This document shows positions 7,108-27,638 of a DNA stretch of 64,000 nucleotides, piece by piece. Position 1 is the first letter of the stretch. Each line of letters begins with the position of its first letter. Source of the DNA: Phyllosticta citribraziliensis. Taxonomy: Eukaryota. The notes beneath the pieces are model-generated. The model saw nothing but the letters and a program-made list of their open reading frames with translations. It made no database searches and was not told the DNA's origin. The DNA is taken from assembly GCF_038025025.1 (NCBI RefSeq), contig NW_027117338.1:1-64000 (forward strand). The letters are read 5' to 3'. A program made the position numbers and the translations under genes.

Positions 7108-9116
7108 CTAACCGCGGAGGTAAGCACGCGCACCACGCTCGAGAATGGCACCGCCGGCGCCCACGGCAAGGACCGCCCAGGTCCACTTGTTCTTGAGCTC
7201 GTTGAAGCTGGGCCAGAAGCTGTTCTTCTCCATCCGGTACTCCTGGAACTGCTGGTACTTGAAGGGGTTCGTCTTCGCGTAGCGCTCGGCCTGGGAGGCT
7301 TCGTTCTCCTTGTCGCCGCCGATGAAGCGCAGGAAGAGGTAGTTGGCGACGGGGGCCAGCAGGACAAGCGGGTGCATGATGCCAGCGCTGTAAAGAAGGG
7401 CGGGGAAGGAGAGGTGGACGAGAGCATCACCAAGGTAGCTGTGGCGGGTTAGCACATGAACATTGCAAGACATGTTGGGATGCTTACTTGGGGTGCCTGA
7501 CGATGCTCCAGACTCCCTCGCGGTAGAGATCAGAGCTCTTGCGGGTGTGAGACTCGAGCTGCGAGTCTGCAAGGACTTCCAGGGCATAGCCAGTGGTGAA
7601 GAGGAAGACGGCCAGGGTGTGAGCGATCGAGGCGTTGTCAGACAGGGGCGAATTCAGCGCGCTCGTAACGCCAGCACGGAAAGGAAGAGTGAACGGCAGA
7701 GAGATGATGGTCTGAGCCACTGCCTCGGGCAAGAACATGGTGAACAGCGCCTTGTTCCAGAACGAGGGGACTTCCTTGAGAGCAGTGTAGCGAGCGTCGT
7801 CTTCGCCGCGCCTGACGGATCGAGAAGCTACGCGGTAGAAGAGGCGGACGCCCCATGCCGTGACACCGGTCAGCAACAGCTTCTCCGGGTACGTGACGGA
7901 ACTCCATGCATCGCTCAGAGTCAATCCGTCGTAGAGAACCCGAGTTCCAATAGCACTCCACCATGCGTTGGCCACTGGTGCAGAAGGCCATAGCCAATCC
8001 TTGCCATCGATCTTGTTTGTGTATCTGGAGATGCCGTAGGCAATGACGGACATGCCCGAATGGAATCCGAACGAGGGAATAATGGCTGACTGCAAAAGTC
8101 CAACCGCCGTGGCATTGACCGGGTTCCGAGCGCCTCGTGAGAAGTGCGAGCCGAATCGATCTTGCTCAGCTCCAGATGAAACGCTGCCAGAGGACCATCC
8201 AGAAGGGCCGGGAGTGGCCTCTACGGGGTTGCCAGGTCTCGTGTTGAAGTGCGAAGCATAGCCTATCTTTGTTAGCTTTGCTAAATTACGGTTTGTGTTG
8301 AACCTCACGGTCTTGCTCAGCACCCGACGTTTGTGGAAGTCGTTCTTGGATCTTGTCCGCGGAGGGACCCTTTCCGCCAAACCAACCACCATAGCGATCT
8401 TGCTCAGCGCCAGAGGTCTTGGGCAGATGCTCCTGCACCCGGTCGGCTGAAGGGCCTTTGCCGCCAAACCATCCTCCATACCGCTCCTGCTCAGCGCCGG
8501 AGCCGTTTGGCAGGTGTTCTTTGACTTTCTCATTTACTTCCGAGGCTGATGGTGCTTTGCCGCCAAACCAGCCGCTGTAGCGGTCCTGCTCAGCGCCAGA
8601 AGTGTTTGGCAGGTGTTCTTTGACCTTCTCTCCCACTTCCGAGGCCGACGGAGCCTTTCCTCCAAGCCAACCGCCGAGACGGTCTTGCTCAGCTCCGGAA
8701 GTCTTGGGAAGCTTTTCTTGGATCTGGTCAGCGGAGGGGCCCTTGCCAGCGAACCATCCTCCGAGGCGGTCCTGTTCAGCAGCAGAGGGCTTGGGGGGCT
8801 CCTCCTTGCCGAAACCAAACCAACCGCTGGATTTCTTCGGTTCGGTGTCTGGGAGCTTCTGCTTTAGCTGCTCAGCCGAAGGCGCCTTGCCTCCGAACCA
8901 ACCTCCATAGCGGTCCTGCTCAGCGCCAGAGGCTTTGGGAAGAGATTCTTGGACCTGTTCGGCAGAGGGCCCCTTGGAGCCAAACCAGCCGCCATAGCGA
9001 TCTTGTTCGGCGCCGGCGCCCTTGGGCAGGTTCTGTACATTGATGTGAGGGGAGTCGTGGACGGGATTCGAGGGATTGGCGCCCAAATGAGAGGCGTATT
9101 TGTCTTGTTCAGCCAT
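7108..9116 (-). CDS. DUF1295 (steroid 5-alpha reductase-like) membrane protein with N-terminal tandem AEQDR repeat array
   Basis: Exons 9116-8309, 8262-7488 and 7438-7108 join in frame. Motifs WGVRL, EDDARY, ADSQL and WSIVRHPNYLGD. Confidence 0.88.
8150..9116 (-). repeat. Intragenic tandem repeat encoding ten AEQ(D/E)(R/K) units (most 29-35 aa)
   Basis: Repeated SGAEQDRYGGWFGGK(G/A)PSA...LP units in the translation. Recurring ctgctcagcgcc-like motif in the + strand DNA. Confidence 0.92.
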
Positions 9117-9389
9117 GGCTGCGAGGAGAGAGACGAGAGGTGTGGTGACGGAGCAAGGGCGGGGAAGCAGCAAGCTTATATGAATGGCAACCTGGTTGCG
9201 GTCATTCCTCTCGGTTCCGTGATCGAGGACAGGTCCATGGGGAAGCTTGGCCTATGACGTAGCCATGGATCATAGCTCCACCCCTCTGGTACGGCAGATT
9301 GTCGGGCACATCAATTGGACATTGTCATCTCCGGCCCCGGGCGAGGGACAAGGTGGTAGCACGAGACTTGATTCGTGGAATTGCTATCC

Positions 9390-17194: not shown

Positions 17195-19938
17195 GATCGT
17201 CACTGTCGAGAGCATTGGTGACACACGGCATGATGCAGCTTACGACTGTGTCAAGTCTTTCACAGCATTGCTTTGGCTTGAAGTGCCTTGATCAGCAGCG
17301 GACGTACAAAGGCGTCCCTCTCAATTCTCGTATGCAACCGCATCCCGCCGCGGCTCGACACATTCGCATCCCTAATGTTTACGCTCTCACGATCATGTCA
17401 CCGCAAGAGCGCAAAGAGATTCGCTGCACAACAATGGCTAGAGACATGGTCCTGCCGGCCCCACCGAACTGGTCATTTCAGCTTCTCGTGACATCTTCCA
17501 CCGCTGCTGCGGTGAATCTCATGAAGTTAAGACACGGAGTTCCATCTGGGCATTGAGACATCGTGTACGACTGCAGCATTGGAGGCCTGTGGCACATTCC
17601 GGGAGCGCCACGACAGGCAGGAAAAATACTCCGAGTCCGCCACCCAAAGTGTTCCGAGCAAATACCCGCCGCCGCATCAGTCTCTCGTTGCACAATGCGG
17701 GGCACCGGATCTAAGTGTTTTGGACCACTGGCCCATGTGGAGGTGCACTGCTGCAGATTGTCTCTTCTATCGGAGACGCAAGTGGGGTATTCGGACTTGC
17801 TCAGCAGACGAGAACACGGCAGCTGCGAGAGCTTGTCGTACTTCCCGTAAAGGGGAGTTGAACTGTGAGCTGTCTCAGTGCATGTTGTCGGATGGCAGCT
17901 CCGTCGACGCAGCCGCCTTGTCGAATGATAGCTCCTTGGATTCAGCTGCTGTGCTTGAACAGGCAGTTGTTTTGACGTTGTTTACCGCCCTGTTATCCGG
18001 GGCGGGGGTGGTCGTGCACTCGTTTAGCAACGGCCGAACAAAAAGTCGTGACAGCTTTGGTCAATTGACGATCCAACATCAACAATATACTTTTCCTGGC
18101 ACTGCCCTCTCGTGTTCTGGTTACCGCTTTGCTACTTACGAGACTATGACTTCAGACCTCGACTCGGCACATTTTTCTCGCTTCGTCTCGTATCCTGCAA
18201 ATTGCAATGGCTCCGAAACTCATCCGCTTCGGCTCGGCAGCGTTCAGGCCGCGCTGCCCGAGTTGAGAAGTTGAACAGAAGACGTCGCATGTACACACGC
18301 GAAAGCTGCCGTCAGTTGGCTTGTCTGCTACGGGTCTCTCTTGGACCAAATTTCCGTATCCGTTCGAAGGTCACGGAACTCGGACACGGCCACTCTGCAT
18401 CGCCGAACGGACGCGAAGGAATCAACCGAGAGCTCTGGGGACGGGAAGCGGACCGTGGAACACGGTCTTGCCAAGAGGGCATCGAGAAGTCGCACGGGCG
18501 AGAAGTTTCCAGCTAGCCCGGAGACTCGGGGAAAGACGTAAAATCGAAATTGGATAAACGGCTTTGGAGTCATGATGACGCGATGAAGGATTCGAGGCTC
18601 GTGTCTGGTGTTGAAGCGTACAGAGTGCCCTTTCCAATGTAGATCAACGAGAGGGCAGACGTCGAGGGCTGGAAGGAAGTGGATGATCAGCGACTCGGTC
18701 CCTGGGTAGAGTCTAGACTGCATACCCGACGAGCAGGACTGCACACGCACCAGGAATTGACGCTCAACACAGCGTCACTCGAGAATGACCTTGCTCCAAA
18801 AGGCACGCAAAAACAAGAACCAAAAAGCATCACAAGTGAAGGCCGCAGTCACTGGAATCTGACAAACGTGGAGATTCTAGGCTCATGCAGTCGCTTGGGA
18901 CCCAACTCTCATGGCGTAGAACCACCACCGCGCTAGCAGCATGTCATATCAGAACATCACGAGCGGCGAAGAAAAGGAGAAAAGGGGACCTTGTCAGCCA
19001 CAACTGTTTCTGCGGTCTCACAAAATCAGCACCAGGACTGTTGAATTTCCGTTCTTGTTGCTGGACAATTGCATTTCATAGGTCTCTTGATTCTGAATGC
19101 TCGACCGATGAGTTTACAGAATAGAGGCACTGCTGCACTTTTTGCTTCACAAGTATGTTCAGCGCCACTGAACCGATACACCTTTCCAAATCAGGGAGAA
19201 GTTGCGCAAGAATCAACGCCTCTTCGGGGCCCGGATGGCCTGGGAAGCCGGTGATCAGACCTCCTCCCAAGGTACCACCTACGTTCTGTTTTCAAAAACG
19301 ATTGCCGGTGGCTGTTGTCATCATTCCTCAGGCCAAGTGTGAACAGACGGTATAGGGCTGTGGATGTGTGGTCATTGTGTGACAGGGGAACACATTGGAC
19401 CACATCGTGATTGCGCCGTGGAGTATAGATAATGACAGCGTGAGATAGGGGATTGATTCAAATTCTCTCTTTCACATTGAATTACTATGGAAAGCCGCTG
19501 ACCGAATCGCAATCCGTCTGGCTCTGGCTGGTGAGCACGCATCCAAAACGCGCTGCGGCACTTGGCCTCAACCGTAGCGGGACCCCATGGTCAACGCCCA
19601 GCTATCCAGCCAACACCAGAGTCGCGATAAATTGCGTGTCAAAGGATTTTCAAGGCCAGCTCCTTCCCGTGCAGCCAGAGGGCGTCCGGCGTGATCGACA
19701 AGCGCGCAAGAAAGCCAGAGGCGCTGCTAACAAGACGCCATGGGCGGTCGACGCCACCACTTGGTAGAACTCGTGGCATCTGGCTGATCGAACCGCGGGT
19801 CAGCGGTACAGGCGGAGCATGTCGAGCGAGAAGGTCTTTCGCTATAAACCACAAGGCGTAGCCGTTGACAGTGAGACTTTTTGCGCCGTTACCAATTGCT
19901 TGCGCCTACCGAACACGCTTTCCCAAGAGCCACGCAAA

Positions 19939-21245
19939 ATGCTCGCCCATCACGAAAGCATCATCGTGGAGATTTGGGTCGAGTATGTCCTTGGTCTCTT
20001 CGTAATGGCAATGGGACTCGTTGCGCGTTGGAAGATCGGCGGAGCTCACCTCTCTTGGGACGATTTGTTCGCGGCGATTTCGATCGTACTGTGGACCATT
20101 GACCCGGCGCTGGAGCAATACATCGGTCAGTGACTTTTCTCGAATGATGGAGCAAGACTGACCATTGATAGCAACCAAGGGAACGTTCGTCGGAGTCGAC
20201 GCATCGACCGCACAAAATTTGAGCACGGCAGAGACCAGCTTACTCGAAAAAGGCTCCAAAGCCCTGTTCGCCGCATGGTTCATCTATGTGACCTTGATTT
20301 GGACGCTGAAGGGCACCGTCTTGGGCTACTATTATCGTCTCACGTGAGTTGAGGCCATCGGGACAGAGGACATTGCTGACTTTTTCAGCGTTGGGCTGTG
20401 GCAGCAGCAGTACGTCAAGTACATGGCCGTCGTCTGCTCCATGTCATGGGTAGCGGTGGTGATTCAAATCGTAAGTTGCCAAGACAGCTCCAAGTGACGT
20501 GGACTCACACTGCCAGTTTTGCCGCTGCACTCCAGTCCAGCGCAACTGGGGAATCGATCCATATGTTGGCGACCAATGCATGCAGGCCTCCTCGTCGCTC
20601 ATCACGCTCATGATTCTCAACATCGCCAACGAGATTGGCCTGGTCTTCATCCCAATCACAATCATCCGCGAAGCCAAACTGCCGTTCCGTAGAAAAGCAA
20701 CCCTGGCCCTTTTGCTATCGTCGTCCTTTTTCATCATCATTTGCGCCCTACTCCGTGGCATCCTTGGACTGAAGGCCATCCAGGATCTCGTCGTCTCAAT
20801 CCACTGGGTCGCGCGCGAAACATTCGTCACCGTCATCGTCATCAACGTGCCCGTCATCTGGCCGCTTTTCCTGGAGCGCACAAAGACCACTCGTGGATCC
20901 CCCAGCGCCATGGGCGGACGCATCAGCTGGTACGGTCCGACGTCTCGCGGCCTCGCGCGCACGCTCTCACGGCGCATCTTTCGAGACTCGGAGGGCTGGT
21001 TTTGGGGCAGCTCTGAAAAGTCGGTGCAAGGCGCCGACGCGTGGAGTTGCGACATCGAATCGATCGATGAGAGGAAGGGGGTGGATTCGCGGTCCATCGA
21101 AGTAACGACCGATCTGGAGGTCATCGTTTCCAACACCGAGGCCTTCACCGCGTCGCAGTTGGACTTGACGCGCGAATTTTGGCGGTGGACGACGCCAAGG
21201 CAGGAGGACGACGTCAAGGGGTCCGGGACAAGACAGTCTGTTTGA
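19939..21245 (+). CDS. PTH11-like (fungal rhodopsin domain) multi-pass membrane protein, no CFEM domain
   Basis: Four exons. Motifs WDDLFA, YVTLIWTLKG...YYRLT, CTPVQRNW, IPITIIREAKLPFRRK and WVARETFVTVIVINVPVIWPLF. Confidence 0.85.
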
Positions 21246-22318: not shown

Positions 22319-24752
22319 CTATAGGAAGAAAAAGCTGGTAGCGAAAATGAATGCGGTGAATGCTGTGCAGAGCGTGTACTGTCCTTCGCGCCACAGGACG
22401 CGGGGACCCCAGCGCTGCTTCTTGTACATTTCCTTGGGGTGCGCAACGCCCGTCTTGGGGTCGCGTTCCAGGAGCTCCTCGCGGTCGGGCATGCTGGGAG
22501 GGAAGAGAGCGTAGCGGAGGGGCTCGCAGCAAGCGGCAATGCAGGTAAGCCACAGGACAGGGGGCCACAGGGCGTGCGTCAGGAGATAGATGAGGAGCGA
22601 GCGAGTAGAGTCCGTTGATTCGACGCCGTTGTAGGTGGAGAGACCGACGGCAGCCAAGACGTAGCAGACGAACAGAATGTGCAGGTAGCACTTGCAGTCC
22701 CAGATGACGACCTTGAGACGGCGCCACATGGGGGCACGGTTGGCAGGATCGCGCTCGTTCATCTCGTCCTTGATGGAACCGGAGGAAGTGAAGCCCTGGG
22801 TCTTGCCGCCGAGCCAGGTGGGCAGAATGAAAGACCGGATGATGGTGAGCGTGTGGAAAGGCGCCATCCACATCATGGCTCCAATCTCGCGCTGACCCAG
22901 CCTGTATCCAGAGGGGATGTAGGTGACCCACTCGTTGATGCGCGTAGTGATGAGGTAGATGAAGCAAAGGCGAGTTTGCCAGCGGAGCTGCTCAGTGTTG
23001 GTGTAGGCAACAAGGTTACCACCGCTGATGAGGACCGTGGGGATAGTGATCAGGGAAATAACGAAGAAAATCTTGAAGAAGGCGTCGATGGTGAAAATGA
23101 AGCCGGAAAGACGTTGGAGGAAGGTCATTTGGCGGATATCCTTGCCGAAAAGGCAGAACTTGAGCTTGACGGCAGTCTGCAACGTTCCAAGAGTCCAGCG
23201 AGTACGCTGCTTGAGATGACCGATGATGGTGTCGGGAACGGTTCCAAATTGCAGAGGCTCATGCACGTAAGCGGTCTTCCAACCGGCACCGAGAAGCATC
23301 GAACTGGTGCAGACATCCTCGGCGAGCGAACCAATGGGCCAGCCGCCAATGTTCTCGAGGGCCGCGCGGCGAACTGCATATCCGGAGCCAGTGCACCACG
23401 CAACACCAGCGGCGTCCTTGGTGGGCTCCATGACGTGAATGAAGCCGTCAAGACTTTGGACGAGCGGGTCGTTTTCGGGAACGTTGTAGAACATCTAAAA
23501 ATATGTGAGCTCGTGTCGCACGTTACACAGCCCATGCAGCAACATACTTGCGGTGGGCAGACAAGGGCCATCTTCGGGTCGGACACCATATGGGCCATGA
23601 TCGAGCGGAGCCAGTCAGGTTCGGGAATCATGTCAGCGTCGAGAGCTGCGATGAATTCTCCACAGCCGCCCGGAAGCTTCGTCACGAATTCAGTGCCGCC
23701 AATCAAGTTTCCGGCCTTGGCGTGGTGCGGGACGCCCTTGATCTTGATGCGTGCAAAGTAGTAGACATTAGGGTACTCGCGGCTGAGATTCTCGACGGCC
23801 TCTTTGAGTTCGGGATCAGCACCGTCGTCAAGAACGACAACGCGGAAACGGTCCTGCGGGTAATCGACAGTGGCTGCAGCCCGGGTGGTGTCAAGGACGA
23901 CGTCGACGTCTTCCTTGCAGCAAGTGACGAATACGTCAACCGTGGGAACAATGTCGCCGACGAGCCTCAACTTGGCACGTTGACGACCCTTGACGTGAAG
24001 AAGTTGCCACATTTGGTGGAAGAAAGCCGGGCCTGCATGATTAGCGAGAGTACGAAGCGAGGAGTTTCGAGCTTACAGGAAACGCAGGCTTCGGCAGCAA
24101 TGAAAACCCATGCCATGACGTAGACCTTGTTGTACTCCTTTTGAGCCATGATGGTACAGTAAATACGGAAAGCAAAGTAAAGATAGTAGGCGCCAACGGC
24201 CAACAAAGTAGTGATCGGACTGAAGTGGTTGATGGTACGCTTCCAGCGCGGCATAAGGTCGATGTCATCGTGCTTGTGCAGTTTTTCGGATTGGTACTGA
24301 GAGTCTTCGAATCTCACGGCGAAAGTGTTTTGGGCTTCCGAGTCGCTGTCAAAGGGGTTCTTCGAGGATTAGCGCGATCCAGATGCTACGGTTCAGCGAC
24401 GTACCTTTTCGTACTCCCGACCCTTCTTTGCGCCTTCTATGGAGGAGAAGTCGTCATCCTCGCCGTACGGTGTGGGGGTAGGGCAGGCGGTGGTTCCGTT
24501 TATGGTGGAGTAGGAAATGGTCGAGTAGGTAGCGTTGTCTCCACGGGAGTAGATGGCCCGGGGTGGGCGAGGAAGACCCTCGGAGGATTCGAATCCTCTT
24601 TCGTGACGACCAAGAAGTTCAACGGAGGGCGAGGACAAGCGATCGGTGGATTGGCAGGCGGATTCCAGATGGTACCCTGACAGGCCGGGACTGGGCAGGG
24701 GACTCATGGGCGGCGAGTAGTCGCCATACCGCCTCTCTTCATGGGAGGCCAT
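22319..24752 (-). CDS. Cellulose-synthase-like processive GT2 glycosyltransferase (CelA/Tft1-like beta-glucan synthase)
   Basis: Multi-exon. D,D,D,QxxRW signature: VLDDG, HHAKAGN, ALDADM, CPPQMFYN, CTGSG, LAEDV, QRTRW. Two N-terminal and several C-terminal TM segments. No PilZ domain. Confidence 0.92.
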
Positions 24753-26473
24753 GGTCGATGGAGAGACTGAACGAGCGTGAGGAGGACAGTGACAAACCAG
24801 CGACGAGCAGTATTAAATGAACGAGTGTGGGGTGGAGCTAGCGTCAAGACCAGCGTAGCAGTGGGAGAGGCGGGACAAGTTGCGGTGGAGCAGAGAATCG
24901 GTCGACTGATATACAAGAGTGGAAGGGAGATGGGCTCGGAGCATGCGTCTTGCGTGGGTCTTGCCCGTGGCCGCGCCTCTGGCTGTGCAGATGGTCGTGG
25001 AGCAATCATCGTAACAGTGTCTAAATTTGTGCCCATAACCCAGTTCGGTTCGGACATCTCCCGCACAAGAGAGCGGCGGCAAGGATTCATGCAAGAGGCG
25101 GCAACTCCGCCGAACACGATTCTGACGGCCTTATCAAGAACCATGCACAGAGACGCTGGTACAGGCGATGATCGCCCTCGAGGGCGGGTAGCCCTGCTGA
25201 GACTTGATAGCGCATGGCATGCAAGAAGGGCTGGGAAGCAGTCAGTGAGGGGCTTGCAAACAGACTGAATGGGGCAGAGTGCGTGGAATCGTCAAACGAA
25301 TGGGGGGTGAGGCGGTGCAGGAAATGCGCCGTAGACGGTAGGTGGCAGAAGAGAGGGAGGGAAAAAAAAAAAGAAAAAAGACGTAGCAGGCCGAGCGTCA
25401 CGGCGTTGATAGAGAATTGAGTGGGCCGGACCGGGGGGGGCGAGAGCAGAGGACAAGGTGCATGATGGAGGTTACGCCGCGTGTGGTGGTGAGGCAGAGG
25501 GCCGGGTCACGTGCAGCGCGTGTGATTGGCCGACGTCGTCAACCGCAACGACATCCCAAGTGCCTGTGCTGTGCGACAGCAACACAGTCCACACAGTCCC
25601 CGAGCGCACACGACACAGCCCGCCCATGGTCCTGACTGCTGGAAACGCCGCGAATCCGCGATTGATCACCGCATCTGTCGACTCGCTTGCGTCCTATTTT
25701 TGAAGCCTCGCTCGCTGCTCTCCGTCCGTCAGTCACTCTTTCTCATCAGGCCTCCGACGCGCGCCATCGAGTAGCCCTATCGTACAAACGACGAAGCGCC
25801 CGTCCATGTAACACGAGATCCTGCCCTGCCATGGCTTTCTCTCTTTCTTTTCCCCCCAGTCTTCTTGTTTCGTGTCTCTTTGCGGCCTCGGTCGTCCAGC
25901 GAGCCGCACGCAGTGGCCAAAGTTTAAACGAGAAAGAAAATCCTGTGGCGCCCGTCTCAGGGCGCGGCCCAGCCGAGCGATAACACGGCCACAATGACAG
26001 AGGCGGGCGGCGAGCACGAGACGGCAATTCGATGGCGAGTTGCAGCGCTCAGGAACAGCATGGGGCCAGGTTGCAAGCGCCAGGGGGTCCCCAGCTCGGC
26101 CTCGTACTTGTTCAGACCGGGGACTCCCACTTTTCGGCCCTCCCGTTTGTTCGCTGGCAAGCCGGTCCGGCGCGAGCGTAGTCTGCATCGCGCGCTCCCT
26201 GCCACAGCTTTGACGGCCGCCAATGCCCGCCGTTGCTTTGCTAATGCCGGCCTCGCAACCTTTTTGCTTGCTGCCCAGGCAGCTTGACGGCTCTCGGCAG
26301 AGTGTGCCCCCGCCCCCTCCCAGGTCAGGACCGAGAGCCTTTTCCCTCTACACCCCCTCGTCCAGTCGCCCCATCTATTGCCGTATGTGACTGATTTCAA
26401 AAACACTTCTCCTGCAAAACCGTCCCGCCCTGGCCTGCCTTGACCGTCTCCGTTTAACATGCATCGAACTATC

Positions 26474-27638
26474 ATGCGTGGCGCGTGGGCCTCCGCGCTG
26501 ATCGCGGCCCTGCTGGCGTGGCCACTGGCAGTCGTCGCCGATGATGAAGAGACGGAAACCATGTGCAGTCCCGAGTCTGCTGTCAACACGACGTCGCTAC
26601 GCTACACAATCCTCTCCAATCAGTGGGGCGACGACGGTTCCGGTTTACAATGCGTGACTGTTGGTTGCCGCCCGTCCTGTACCAGGGTGGAATTCCCTCT
26701 GCTGACCTCCAACGTGTACAGTCCGAACTCGGCAGCAAAGATGACAACTCGACGTCCTTTAATGCGACCTGGAGGTGGTTTAATACTCGCACAGAGGTAA
26801 GACTTTATAGCCGTGTCCCAAGTCAGGCCGCTTACGACTACACGTTTCAGGTCCACTCGTTCCCCAGTGTCATCCTGAATTCCAATGTAATGCCCGTAGT
26901 GGTGTCCAACCTGACGTCCATCACCATTGATGCGTCTTGGGCAATAGTCCCCTCTCCTTCTGATGAGACTGAGACCAACTCAACCTTGCTGGCGTCTCTC
27001 GACACCGTCGCCGACGTTGCCCTGGACATGTTCCTGGACGATGACCCGCTCAAGTCGTCTAACGCGTCTGGCGCCACGACCGAAGTCATGGTCTGGCAAT
27101 CTGCATATGGTAACCTGAAGCCGCTCGGTTGGGACACCATTTCGGCAGACCCTCCCATCCGTGAGCTATCCGCCGTCAACTAGTGAGTCGCCTCGTGCGC
27201 CTGAAGAAGCCTCTCAGGCCCCCCAAGCGCCTCATGGTCGCATATTTTTAGCATGCCCCTATGCTAACGTCCTCCACCAGCACGCTATACAAGGGCTTCA
27301 ATGCCAATGGCCAGACTGTCTACTCATGGGTGCCGAACCAGAACCAGTCGACGCTGAACACCGACTTGTACCCTCTTGTCGACTACCTGGTCAAAGATGG
27401 CGCCATTTCCGACAAGATGTATCTCGGCCGTTTGCAGTTTGGATCTGAAACGATGCACTCGGGTCAGAACCAAAACATTTCGTTCATCGTGTCTCATCTT
27501 GAGATGAACGTCAACCACGAGGTTTGGACTCCTCCCAAGGGTTCCGGGAGCGGAAGCGGACACCACAAGGGTGCCGCATCATCATTACAGCCAAGCGTCG
27601 CATTGATCGTGGCGATTGTTTTGTTTTTGGTTGTGTAA
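26474..27638 (+). CDS. Glycoside hydrolase family 12 endo-beta-glucanase with signal peptide and putative GPI-anchor signal
   Basis: Four exons. NQWG, VHSFPSV, ADVALDMF, TEVMVW (nucleophile Glu 27082-27084) and QFGSE (acid/base Glu 27447-27449). C-terminus GSGSGSGHHKGAASSLQPSVALIVAIVLFLVV. Confidence 0.88.

Follow-up and report, generated by a model that had tools for sequence, protein, structure and literature searches.

Head-to-head genes for a cellulose-synthase-like GT2 and a tethered GH12 in Phyllosticta citribraziliensis: a candidate module for fungal wall-glucan synthesis and remodelling

The question raised by this locus is whether a cellulose-synthase-like glycosyltransferase and the glucanase gene lying head-to-head with it work as one unit in the building of the fungal cell wall. 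The locus belongs to a 64,000-nucleotide stretch of the Phyllosticta citribraziliensis genome (contig NW_027117338.1, positions 1 to 64,000; hereafter the window), in which a family GT2 synthase gene on the minus strand and a family GH12 glucanase gene on the plus strand are transcribed away from each other with 1707 bases from ATG to ATG, in agreement with the divergent arrangement and the spacing of about 1.7 kb given in a preliminary description of this DNA. The head-to-head pair recurs, by the assignment of its loci and genomes, in Dothideomycetes, Eurotiomycetes and Sordariomycetes, and the explanation that we regard as probable is a two-gene wall-glucan module, in which the GT2 makes the glucan and the tethered GH12 cuts the nascent chain and then releases or grafts it. 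The interpretation of the locus as a synthase-hydrolase pair, already offered in the preliminary description, is supported by our data, while the co-regulation and the enzyme activities it proposed are what we infer.

The GT2 gene comprises four exons encoding 763 amino acids with zero internal stops, and its GT..AG introns are 45, 44 and 53 nt long. Exon 1 (24405..24752; this and the other exons of the gene are on the minus strand and rest on the gene model and RNA splice joints) encodes a disordered N-terminus and exon 2 (24077..24359) the first transmembrane helices. Exon 3 (23548..24032), also placed by Pfam and structure comparison, carries the motifs DDG (D279-D280), HAKAG (residues 314-318) and DAD, and exon 4 (22319..23494), also placed by Pfam, carries AED (E431-D432), QRTRW (residues 468-472, read from the sequence at 23195..23209, minus strand), the switch motif, the C-terminal membrane helices and the stop. 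The D,D,D,QxxRW signature of a processive GT2 is intact, as had been noticed at first sight. The gene model is identical to a database protein (P0330) over 763/763 residues, and Pfam assigns it to GT2/Cellulose_synt. In the RNA evidence, which consists of the assembled contigs of four runs out of 24 listed, introns 1 and 2 appear as joints in 4/4 runs and intron 3 in 3/4. A fold search with the predicted model of an orthologue (P0006) gave BcsA as the top structural matches, followed by plant CesA and CslF6, and in this model the GT-A domain appears to lie inside a multi-helix membrane channel, as in BcsA-type enzymes.

The GH12 gene likewise has four exons, all on the plus strand, and encodes 321 amino acids. 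Exon 1 (26459..26659; gene model, orthologues and RNA joints) includes the signal peptide at about 26459-26539, the orthologues beginning at the second Met; exon 2 spans 26722..26796 (gene model and RNA joints); exon 3 (26851..27182; gene model, Pfam and alignment to solved enzymes) encodes the nucleophile Glu170 at 27082-27084, and exon 4 (27281..27638; gene model, alignment and RNA joints) the acid/base Glu259 at 27447-27449. All three introns are joints in 3/4 RNA runs; in the low-depth run X5 the GH12 is uncovered, which is uninformative at such depth. Alignment to solved enzymes pairs their catalytic residues with D151 (helper), E170 and E259, so both catalytic glutamates claimed from the first are in place. 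Pfam PF01670 is found on the GH12 orthologues, exon 3 of the window gene alone scoring 26.7 against a cut-off of 27. The model of an orthologue (P0003), with a mean confidence (pLDDT) of 86.7, is predicted to adopt the jelly-roll fold of clan C, with a TM score of 0.9 to fungal GH12s.

Both ends of this protein are hydrophobic. At the C-terminus a Gly/Ser spacer is followed by GAA and a second spacer, short and polar; the chain then closes in a hydrophobic end with no cytoplasmic tail, the last 14 residues having a mean Kyte–Doolittle (KD) hydropathy of 3.36. By inspection and hydropathy, a signal peptide, a small omega residue, a polar spacer and a hydrophobic end, which together make up a glycosylphosphatidylinositol (GPI) signal, are all present (27540..27635, plus strand), with the likely omega site near Gly300 as judged from general GPI anatomy. 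The signal peptide, spacer and tail of the preliminary description are borne out by anatomy and hydropathy alike, and the window GH12 is predicted from its sequence to be GPI-anchored at the cell surface. This tail and its separate branch in the tree set it apart from the canonical secreted GH12s.

That the two genes belong together is argued by the conservation of their arrangement. In a metagenome scan with the synthase alignment, 80 of 105 confirmed loci were kept and fell into 44 clusters at 90% identity, with locus taxonomy taken from best hits; 18 of the 44 clusters were too short upstream to judge. Of the 23 independent clusters with at least 5 kb of upstream sequence, 15 have a tethered-type GH12 on the upstream side, in every case on the opposite strand. 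The corresponding counts are 16/24 at 4 kb and 18/26 at 3.5 kb (Fisher p 3e-7), and we quote the 5-kb figure because the 3.5-kb cut was picked after viewing the data. The downstream flanks of at least 5 kb, which served as a control, contained a GH12 in 0/22 cases, and an unfiltered hidden Markov model search found no overlooked GH12 at the unlinked loci. Chance adjacency is ruled out by the downstream control and the scrambled order of the other neighbours, and a larger gene cluster was rejected, no third gene being common to distant loci among 30 regions. This conserved linkage of synthase and glucanase beyond the genus settles affirmatively a main point on which the reading of the preliminary description would stand or fall.

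Annotated genomes agree with the scan, consecutive gene identifiers being taken as adjacency and not as orientation. The two genes are numbered in succession in Phyllosticta capitalensis (6 assemblies), Saccharata, Metarhizium acridum, M. anisopliae, a member of the Chaetothyriales (DV738_g1075/1076) and two Aureobasidium strains, a third strain having them 8 numbers apart. FGSG_07891 of F. graminearum adjoins the GH12 Fg07892, and tft1 of A. fumigatus (Afu3g03620) adjoins the GH12 Afu3g03610, both of these GH12s being known here by identifier, not sequence. According to the available part of supplement file 2 of PMC5307856 (papers are cited throughout for the portions of them that were accessible), A. 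nidulans, the A. niger group, A. terreus and three Onygenales have no member of the Afu3g03610 orthogroup. The CelA protein of A. nidulans, which had been named as a comparator, proved unsuitable: its neighbour is a DUF3431 gene, and the species is reported to have neither Tft1 nor, by solid-state NMR, mixed-linkage glucan (PMC11343165), contrary to PMC5519750, which names CelA a Tft1 orthologue. That synthase, polymer and GH12 orthogroup are missing together from this species speaks for the module.

The place of the window synthase in its family bears on what the pair may produce. Protein P0100, whose switch motif is letter for letter that of AfTFT1, was taken to stand for this enzyme (offset 11 residues). 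Over 621 residues the window GT2 shares 53% identity with AfTFT1, and in a 69-row synthase tree the TFT1 clade (support 100) and the clade of the window (support 98) are sisters; position 551 in AfTFT1 numbering is Ile, rarely Leu or Val, in the former and His in the latter. The AfTFT1 lineage has been defined as 70-96% identical to AfTFT1 (preprint 10.64898/2026.09.17.752320), and since the window protein falls below this range, branches in the sister clade and has His instead of Ile at 551, it is a relative of Tft1 and not a strict orthologue. The idea of a CelA/Tft1-clade synthase therefore holds as to kinship with Tft1 and fails as to the clade itself.

Linkage follows these clades: it is found in 16/16 loci of the TFT1 clade, 2/5 of the His clade and 0/5 of the others. 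The tail state of the GH12 tracks the synthase clade in 18/18 linked loci, all 16 TFT1-linked GH12s being tailless, with an N-terminal anchor motif detected in 9 of the 16, and both His-clade GH12s having a GPI-type tail. The surface-tethered partner of the preliminary description is thus upheld in that the linked GH12s are of tethered type, and needs correction in that the tether is mostly an N-terminal signal anchor and not a GPI tail.

For the wider family we took the best 150 of 649 profile-search proteins plus 33 from a second search, and typed 59 full-length non-canonical GH12s, 9 canonical rows and all short rows being excluded. A tail or an N-anchor motif occurs in 54 of the 59: 31 have a hydrophobic C-tail as in the window (type A), 23 have the anchor motif at the N-terminus (type B) and the remaining 5 lack both. 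In quick, midpoint-rooted trees the type B proteins group together with support, those of type A do not, and the canonical enzymes branch apart. Canonical alignments show a Pro directly after the acid/base Glu, and this Pro is found in 0/31 and 0/28 tethered members of two overlapping alignments. The expectation of a single GPI-tailed clade co-occurring with the synthase had to be abandoned, for the GPI-tailed members form no supported clade and are often unlinked. An apparent Gln nucleophile in one locus (L028) was discarded as an artefact, since the locus encodes Glu. GPI-type GH12s are also present in Neurospora and Sordaria, and a Fusarium cluster (P0142) includes several that are source-named 'glycosyl transferase', which may mean an adjoining or fused transferase.

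Over 22 pairs, the pairwise identities of synthase and GH12 are correlated (Spearman 0.88, reached in 0/5000 permutations; 0.79 within type B), and one lineage is long-branched in both trees. This fast-evolving lineage (P0194 and the loci L039, L042 and L078, where the upstream GH12 is on the minus strand) keeps the head-to-head pair and has Gln at the GH12 acid/base position and Leu at the synthase switch position.

The space between the two genes (24753..26458, from gene models and contigs) may harbour a compact shared promoter. In run X1, which has nearly no letter differences from the window, spliced contigs extend to 25403 on the GT2 side and to 25600 on the GH12 side, leaving a gap of about 200 bases; this is a hint, as contigs cannot place transcript starts. 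Spliced transcripts of both genes are present together in 3/4 runs, the contigs carrying no expression level. The GATA-like 7-mer CCTTATC is present in 12/19 linked intergenic regions, compared with 1.4 on average in flank controls (0/150 draws), and a motif search places a GATA-like CCTTATCA site, a lead only, at 25129..25136 (plus strand). This 7-mer is also found upstream of 4/10 unlinked synthases and was picked as the top among all 7-mers, and for these reasons it is no evidence for co-regulation, which we would nevertheless expect of such a pair.

By analogy with AfTFT1, and given the BcsA-like predicted fold, the GT2 would build from UDP-glucose a glucan with beta-1,4 linkages, most likely the mixed-linkage (1,3;1,4) form, which would leave the cell through the enzyme's own membrane channel. 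The GH12 would sit on the outside of the membrane, tethered through a GPI anchor in the clade of the window and through an N-terminal helix in that of TFT1. As the chain emerges, the GH12 would break a 1,4 bond in it with the two glutamates of a retaining enzyme and hand the cut end over either to water, which amounts to release and length control, or to a glucan of the wall, which amounts to grafting. GH12s are retaining enzymes, and for this reason grafting onto the wall core is possible. Within this explanation we hold release or trimming to be somewhat probable, with grafting a serious contender just short of that. Mixed-linkage glucan is reported to be a branch of the insoluble wall core and to make up about 10% of the wall glucan of A. 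fumigatus (PMC4344333), its synthase having been proven only in 2026 (10.64898/2026.09.17.752320).

Several observations weigh against this explanation. AfTFT1 alone makes mixed-linkage glucan of near-native fine structure in Komagataella (10.64898/2026.09.17.752320, 2026), so the GH12 is dispensable for polymerisation and linkage pattern, and what remains for it is a role after extrusion. The identity correlation points to long joint inheritance, not to co-adaptation, and shared descent by itself would lead one to expect it. Of the five metagenome loci in the window's own clade only two are linked; the second His-clade GT2 of the genome (contig C8, G000:C8:1248800-1251400, L007; 57% identical) has a long gene-poor stretch upstream and no GH12 in the approximately 26 kb around it. 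S. borealis has both genes on separate contigs, Sporothrix curviconia and S. thermara have non-adjacent gene tags, Leotiomycetes have lost the linkage, and in Exophiala dermatitidis and Microdochium the GH12s with a GPI tail do not adjoin the compared GT2s; paralogues could be behind some of these unlinked cases. At three linked loci the acid/base residue is Gln. The B. dothidea orthologue of the window GH12 has no C-terminal tail, nor has another close relative (P0005, P0126), which may reflect a true loss or a gene-model error. Finally, GH72 enzymes are reported to transfer lichenin in Neurospora and would be rivals for the grafting step, the cross-linking of mixed-linkage glucan to beta-1,3-glucan being described as unverified in the same review (PMC6796803).

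The dispensability of the GH12 for synthesis would also be accommodated by an enzyme that turns over mature wall glucan, in branching, autolysis or the trimming of fragments that a host might sense, the linkage serving only to co-inherit and co-express enzyme and substrate. The frequent unlinked state of GPI-type GH12s fits this view, as does the reported lack of a growth phenotype on tft1 deletion (PMC4344333). Nevertheless, the fixed head-to-head geometry and the clade-matched anchors are tighter than turnover requires, and both transcripts occur in the same three of four runs; we consider this alternative unlikely.

A rather smaller chance is given to the GH12 as a mainly non-catalytic accessory subunit that would bind the synthase or guide the glucan, for which the bacterial BcsB offers the comparison. 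The N-terminal helix of type B is conserved well past the needs of a plain anchor, and the lineage with Gln for the acid/base Glu remains linked. Yet the nucleophile Glu is kept in 31/31 and the acid/base Glu in 30/31 aligned tethered members, the window form would have no membrane helix once processed, and the synthase works alone.

A GH12 that attacks plant glucans from the surface of the hypha, the linkage being inherited gene order without shared function, is suggested by its nearest solved relatives (plant-wall xyloglucanases, cellulases and lichenases) and by the database annotation of the family, and is improbable given that every other neighbour varies among distant loci, that the pair is retained in insect-associated Metarhizium and in black yeasts, that the genome (31 Mb) has one more GH12, of the canonical secreted type, on a different contig, and that Fg07892 is not induced in wheat, where, as reported, it is barely expressed during infection and elicits no cell death, unlike two secreted GH12 paralogues (PMC10037148), which fits a non-plant role.

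We return to the two-gene module and to its possible product in the clade of the window. The switch-motif equivalent of the GT2 (residues 583-593; 22832..22864, minus strand) was placed by alignment to the AfTFT1 motif, with His586 aligned to Ile551. The preprint 10.64898/2026.09.17.752320 mutated Ile551 to the Tyr of CslF6, treating both as one position, and the barley CslF6 Tyr787His change shifts the 1,3:1,4 ratio from 1:2 to about 1:24, that is, to mostly cellulose (PMC9651860). A more cellulose-like product of the window GT2 may follow from this alignment and this effect, with the reservation that the register of the switch motif is ambiguous: the motif swap of the preprint implies an offset of three residues, and the CesA/CslF6 alignments stop short of the region. 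Mixed-linkage glucan is moreover reported in Pyrenophora (10.64898/2026.09.17.752320), whose order sits in the His clade of our synthase tree, a caveat to a cellulose-like product. That the tethered GH12 is the missing transglycosylase grafting the product onto the wall core is on its own a tentative idea, and its combination with a His-switch clade making mostly 1,4-linked, cellulose-like glucan is a long shot, which, if true, would mean a cellulose-type synthase/glucanase machine in true fungi. The linkage itself names one candidate enzyme for the release or attachment of mixed-linkage glucan, draws attention to a second synthase clade with a possibly different product, and recasts as probable fungal-wall enzymes a broad group of GH12s that genome papers count as plant-wall-degrading.

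Some further features were recorded at and beyond the pair. Synthases nearest to those of the lichen fungus Stereocaulon (L063/L064 and L088/L089) form their own branch with GH12 absent upstream and are candidate lichenan synthases. On one contig two synthase paralogues lie about 90 kb apart (L037 and L059), with a GH12 only at the TFT1-clade copy. In the window, a gene for a fungal rhodopsin-domain (PTH11-like) membrane protein (19768-21245, plus strand) lies tail-to-tail with the GT2 and is not kept beside other synthases, and an open reading frame at 8286-9251 (minus strand) contains many repeats of a short EQDRYGGWFG-like unit.

Among known systems the nearest is Tft1 of A. fumigatus (Afu3g03620), which shares with the window GT2 the fungal GT2 family, the motifs and a neighbouring GH12, and differs from it by its clade and by Ile551 in place of His. 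The accessible parts of two Tft1 papers do not mention a partner hydrolase, and the main text of the preprint 10.64898/2026.09.17.752320 contains no GH12, hydrolase or synteny. The pair is unmentioned in the available portions of PMC4309609, PMC6638348, PMC5872309, PMC7140844, PMC7997180, PMC4176579 and PMC13208840; in a full-text literature search, with most subscription journals and supplements outside it, neither the pair nor tethered GH12s of fungi were described anywhere, and no main text in it contained Afu3g03610. The GPI-anchored wall transglycosylases (GH16 Crh, GH72 Gel and GH76 Dfg5) are likewise retaining glycosidases that are tethered at the surface and have the wall of their own fungus as substrate (PMC6796803); they belong to other families, a synthase linkage was not seen described for them, and transfer by the GH12 is putative. 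The secreted fungal GH12s (Cel12A, XEG, Fg05851) share the fold and the catalytic residues with the window type, which differs from the solved ones in its identity of only about 22-26%, its membrane tether, the missing Pro after the acid/base residue and its separate clade. In bacteria (BcsA/BcsZ) and plants (CesA/KORRIGAN) a synthase is combined with a dedicated endoglucanase, the partners being inverting enzymes of GH8 and GH9. The fungal pair resembles them in joining a processive GT2 of predicted BcsA fold with a linked or associated, putative beta-1,4-glucanase of the cell surface, and differs in that its hydrolase is a retaining GH12, which could transglycosylate, and in that it consists of two genes, a third conserved gene being absent. 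The design may work like the bacterial and plant synthase-glucanase systems, with a different hydrolase family and two different solutions for anchoring it.

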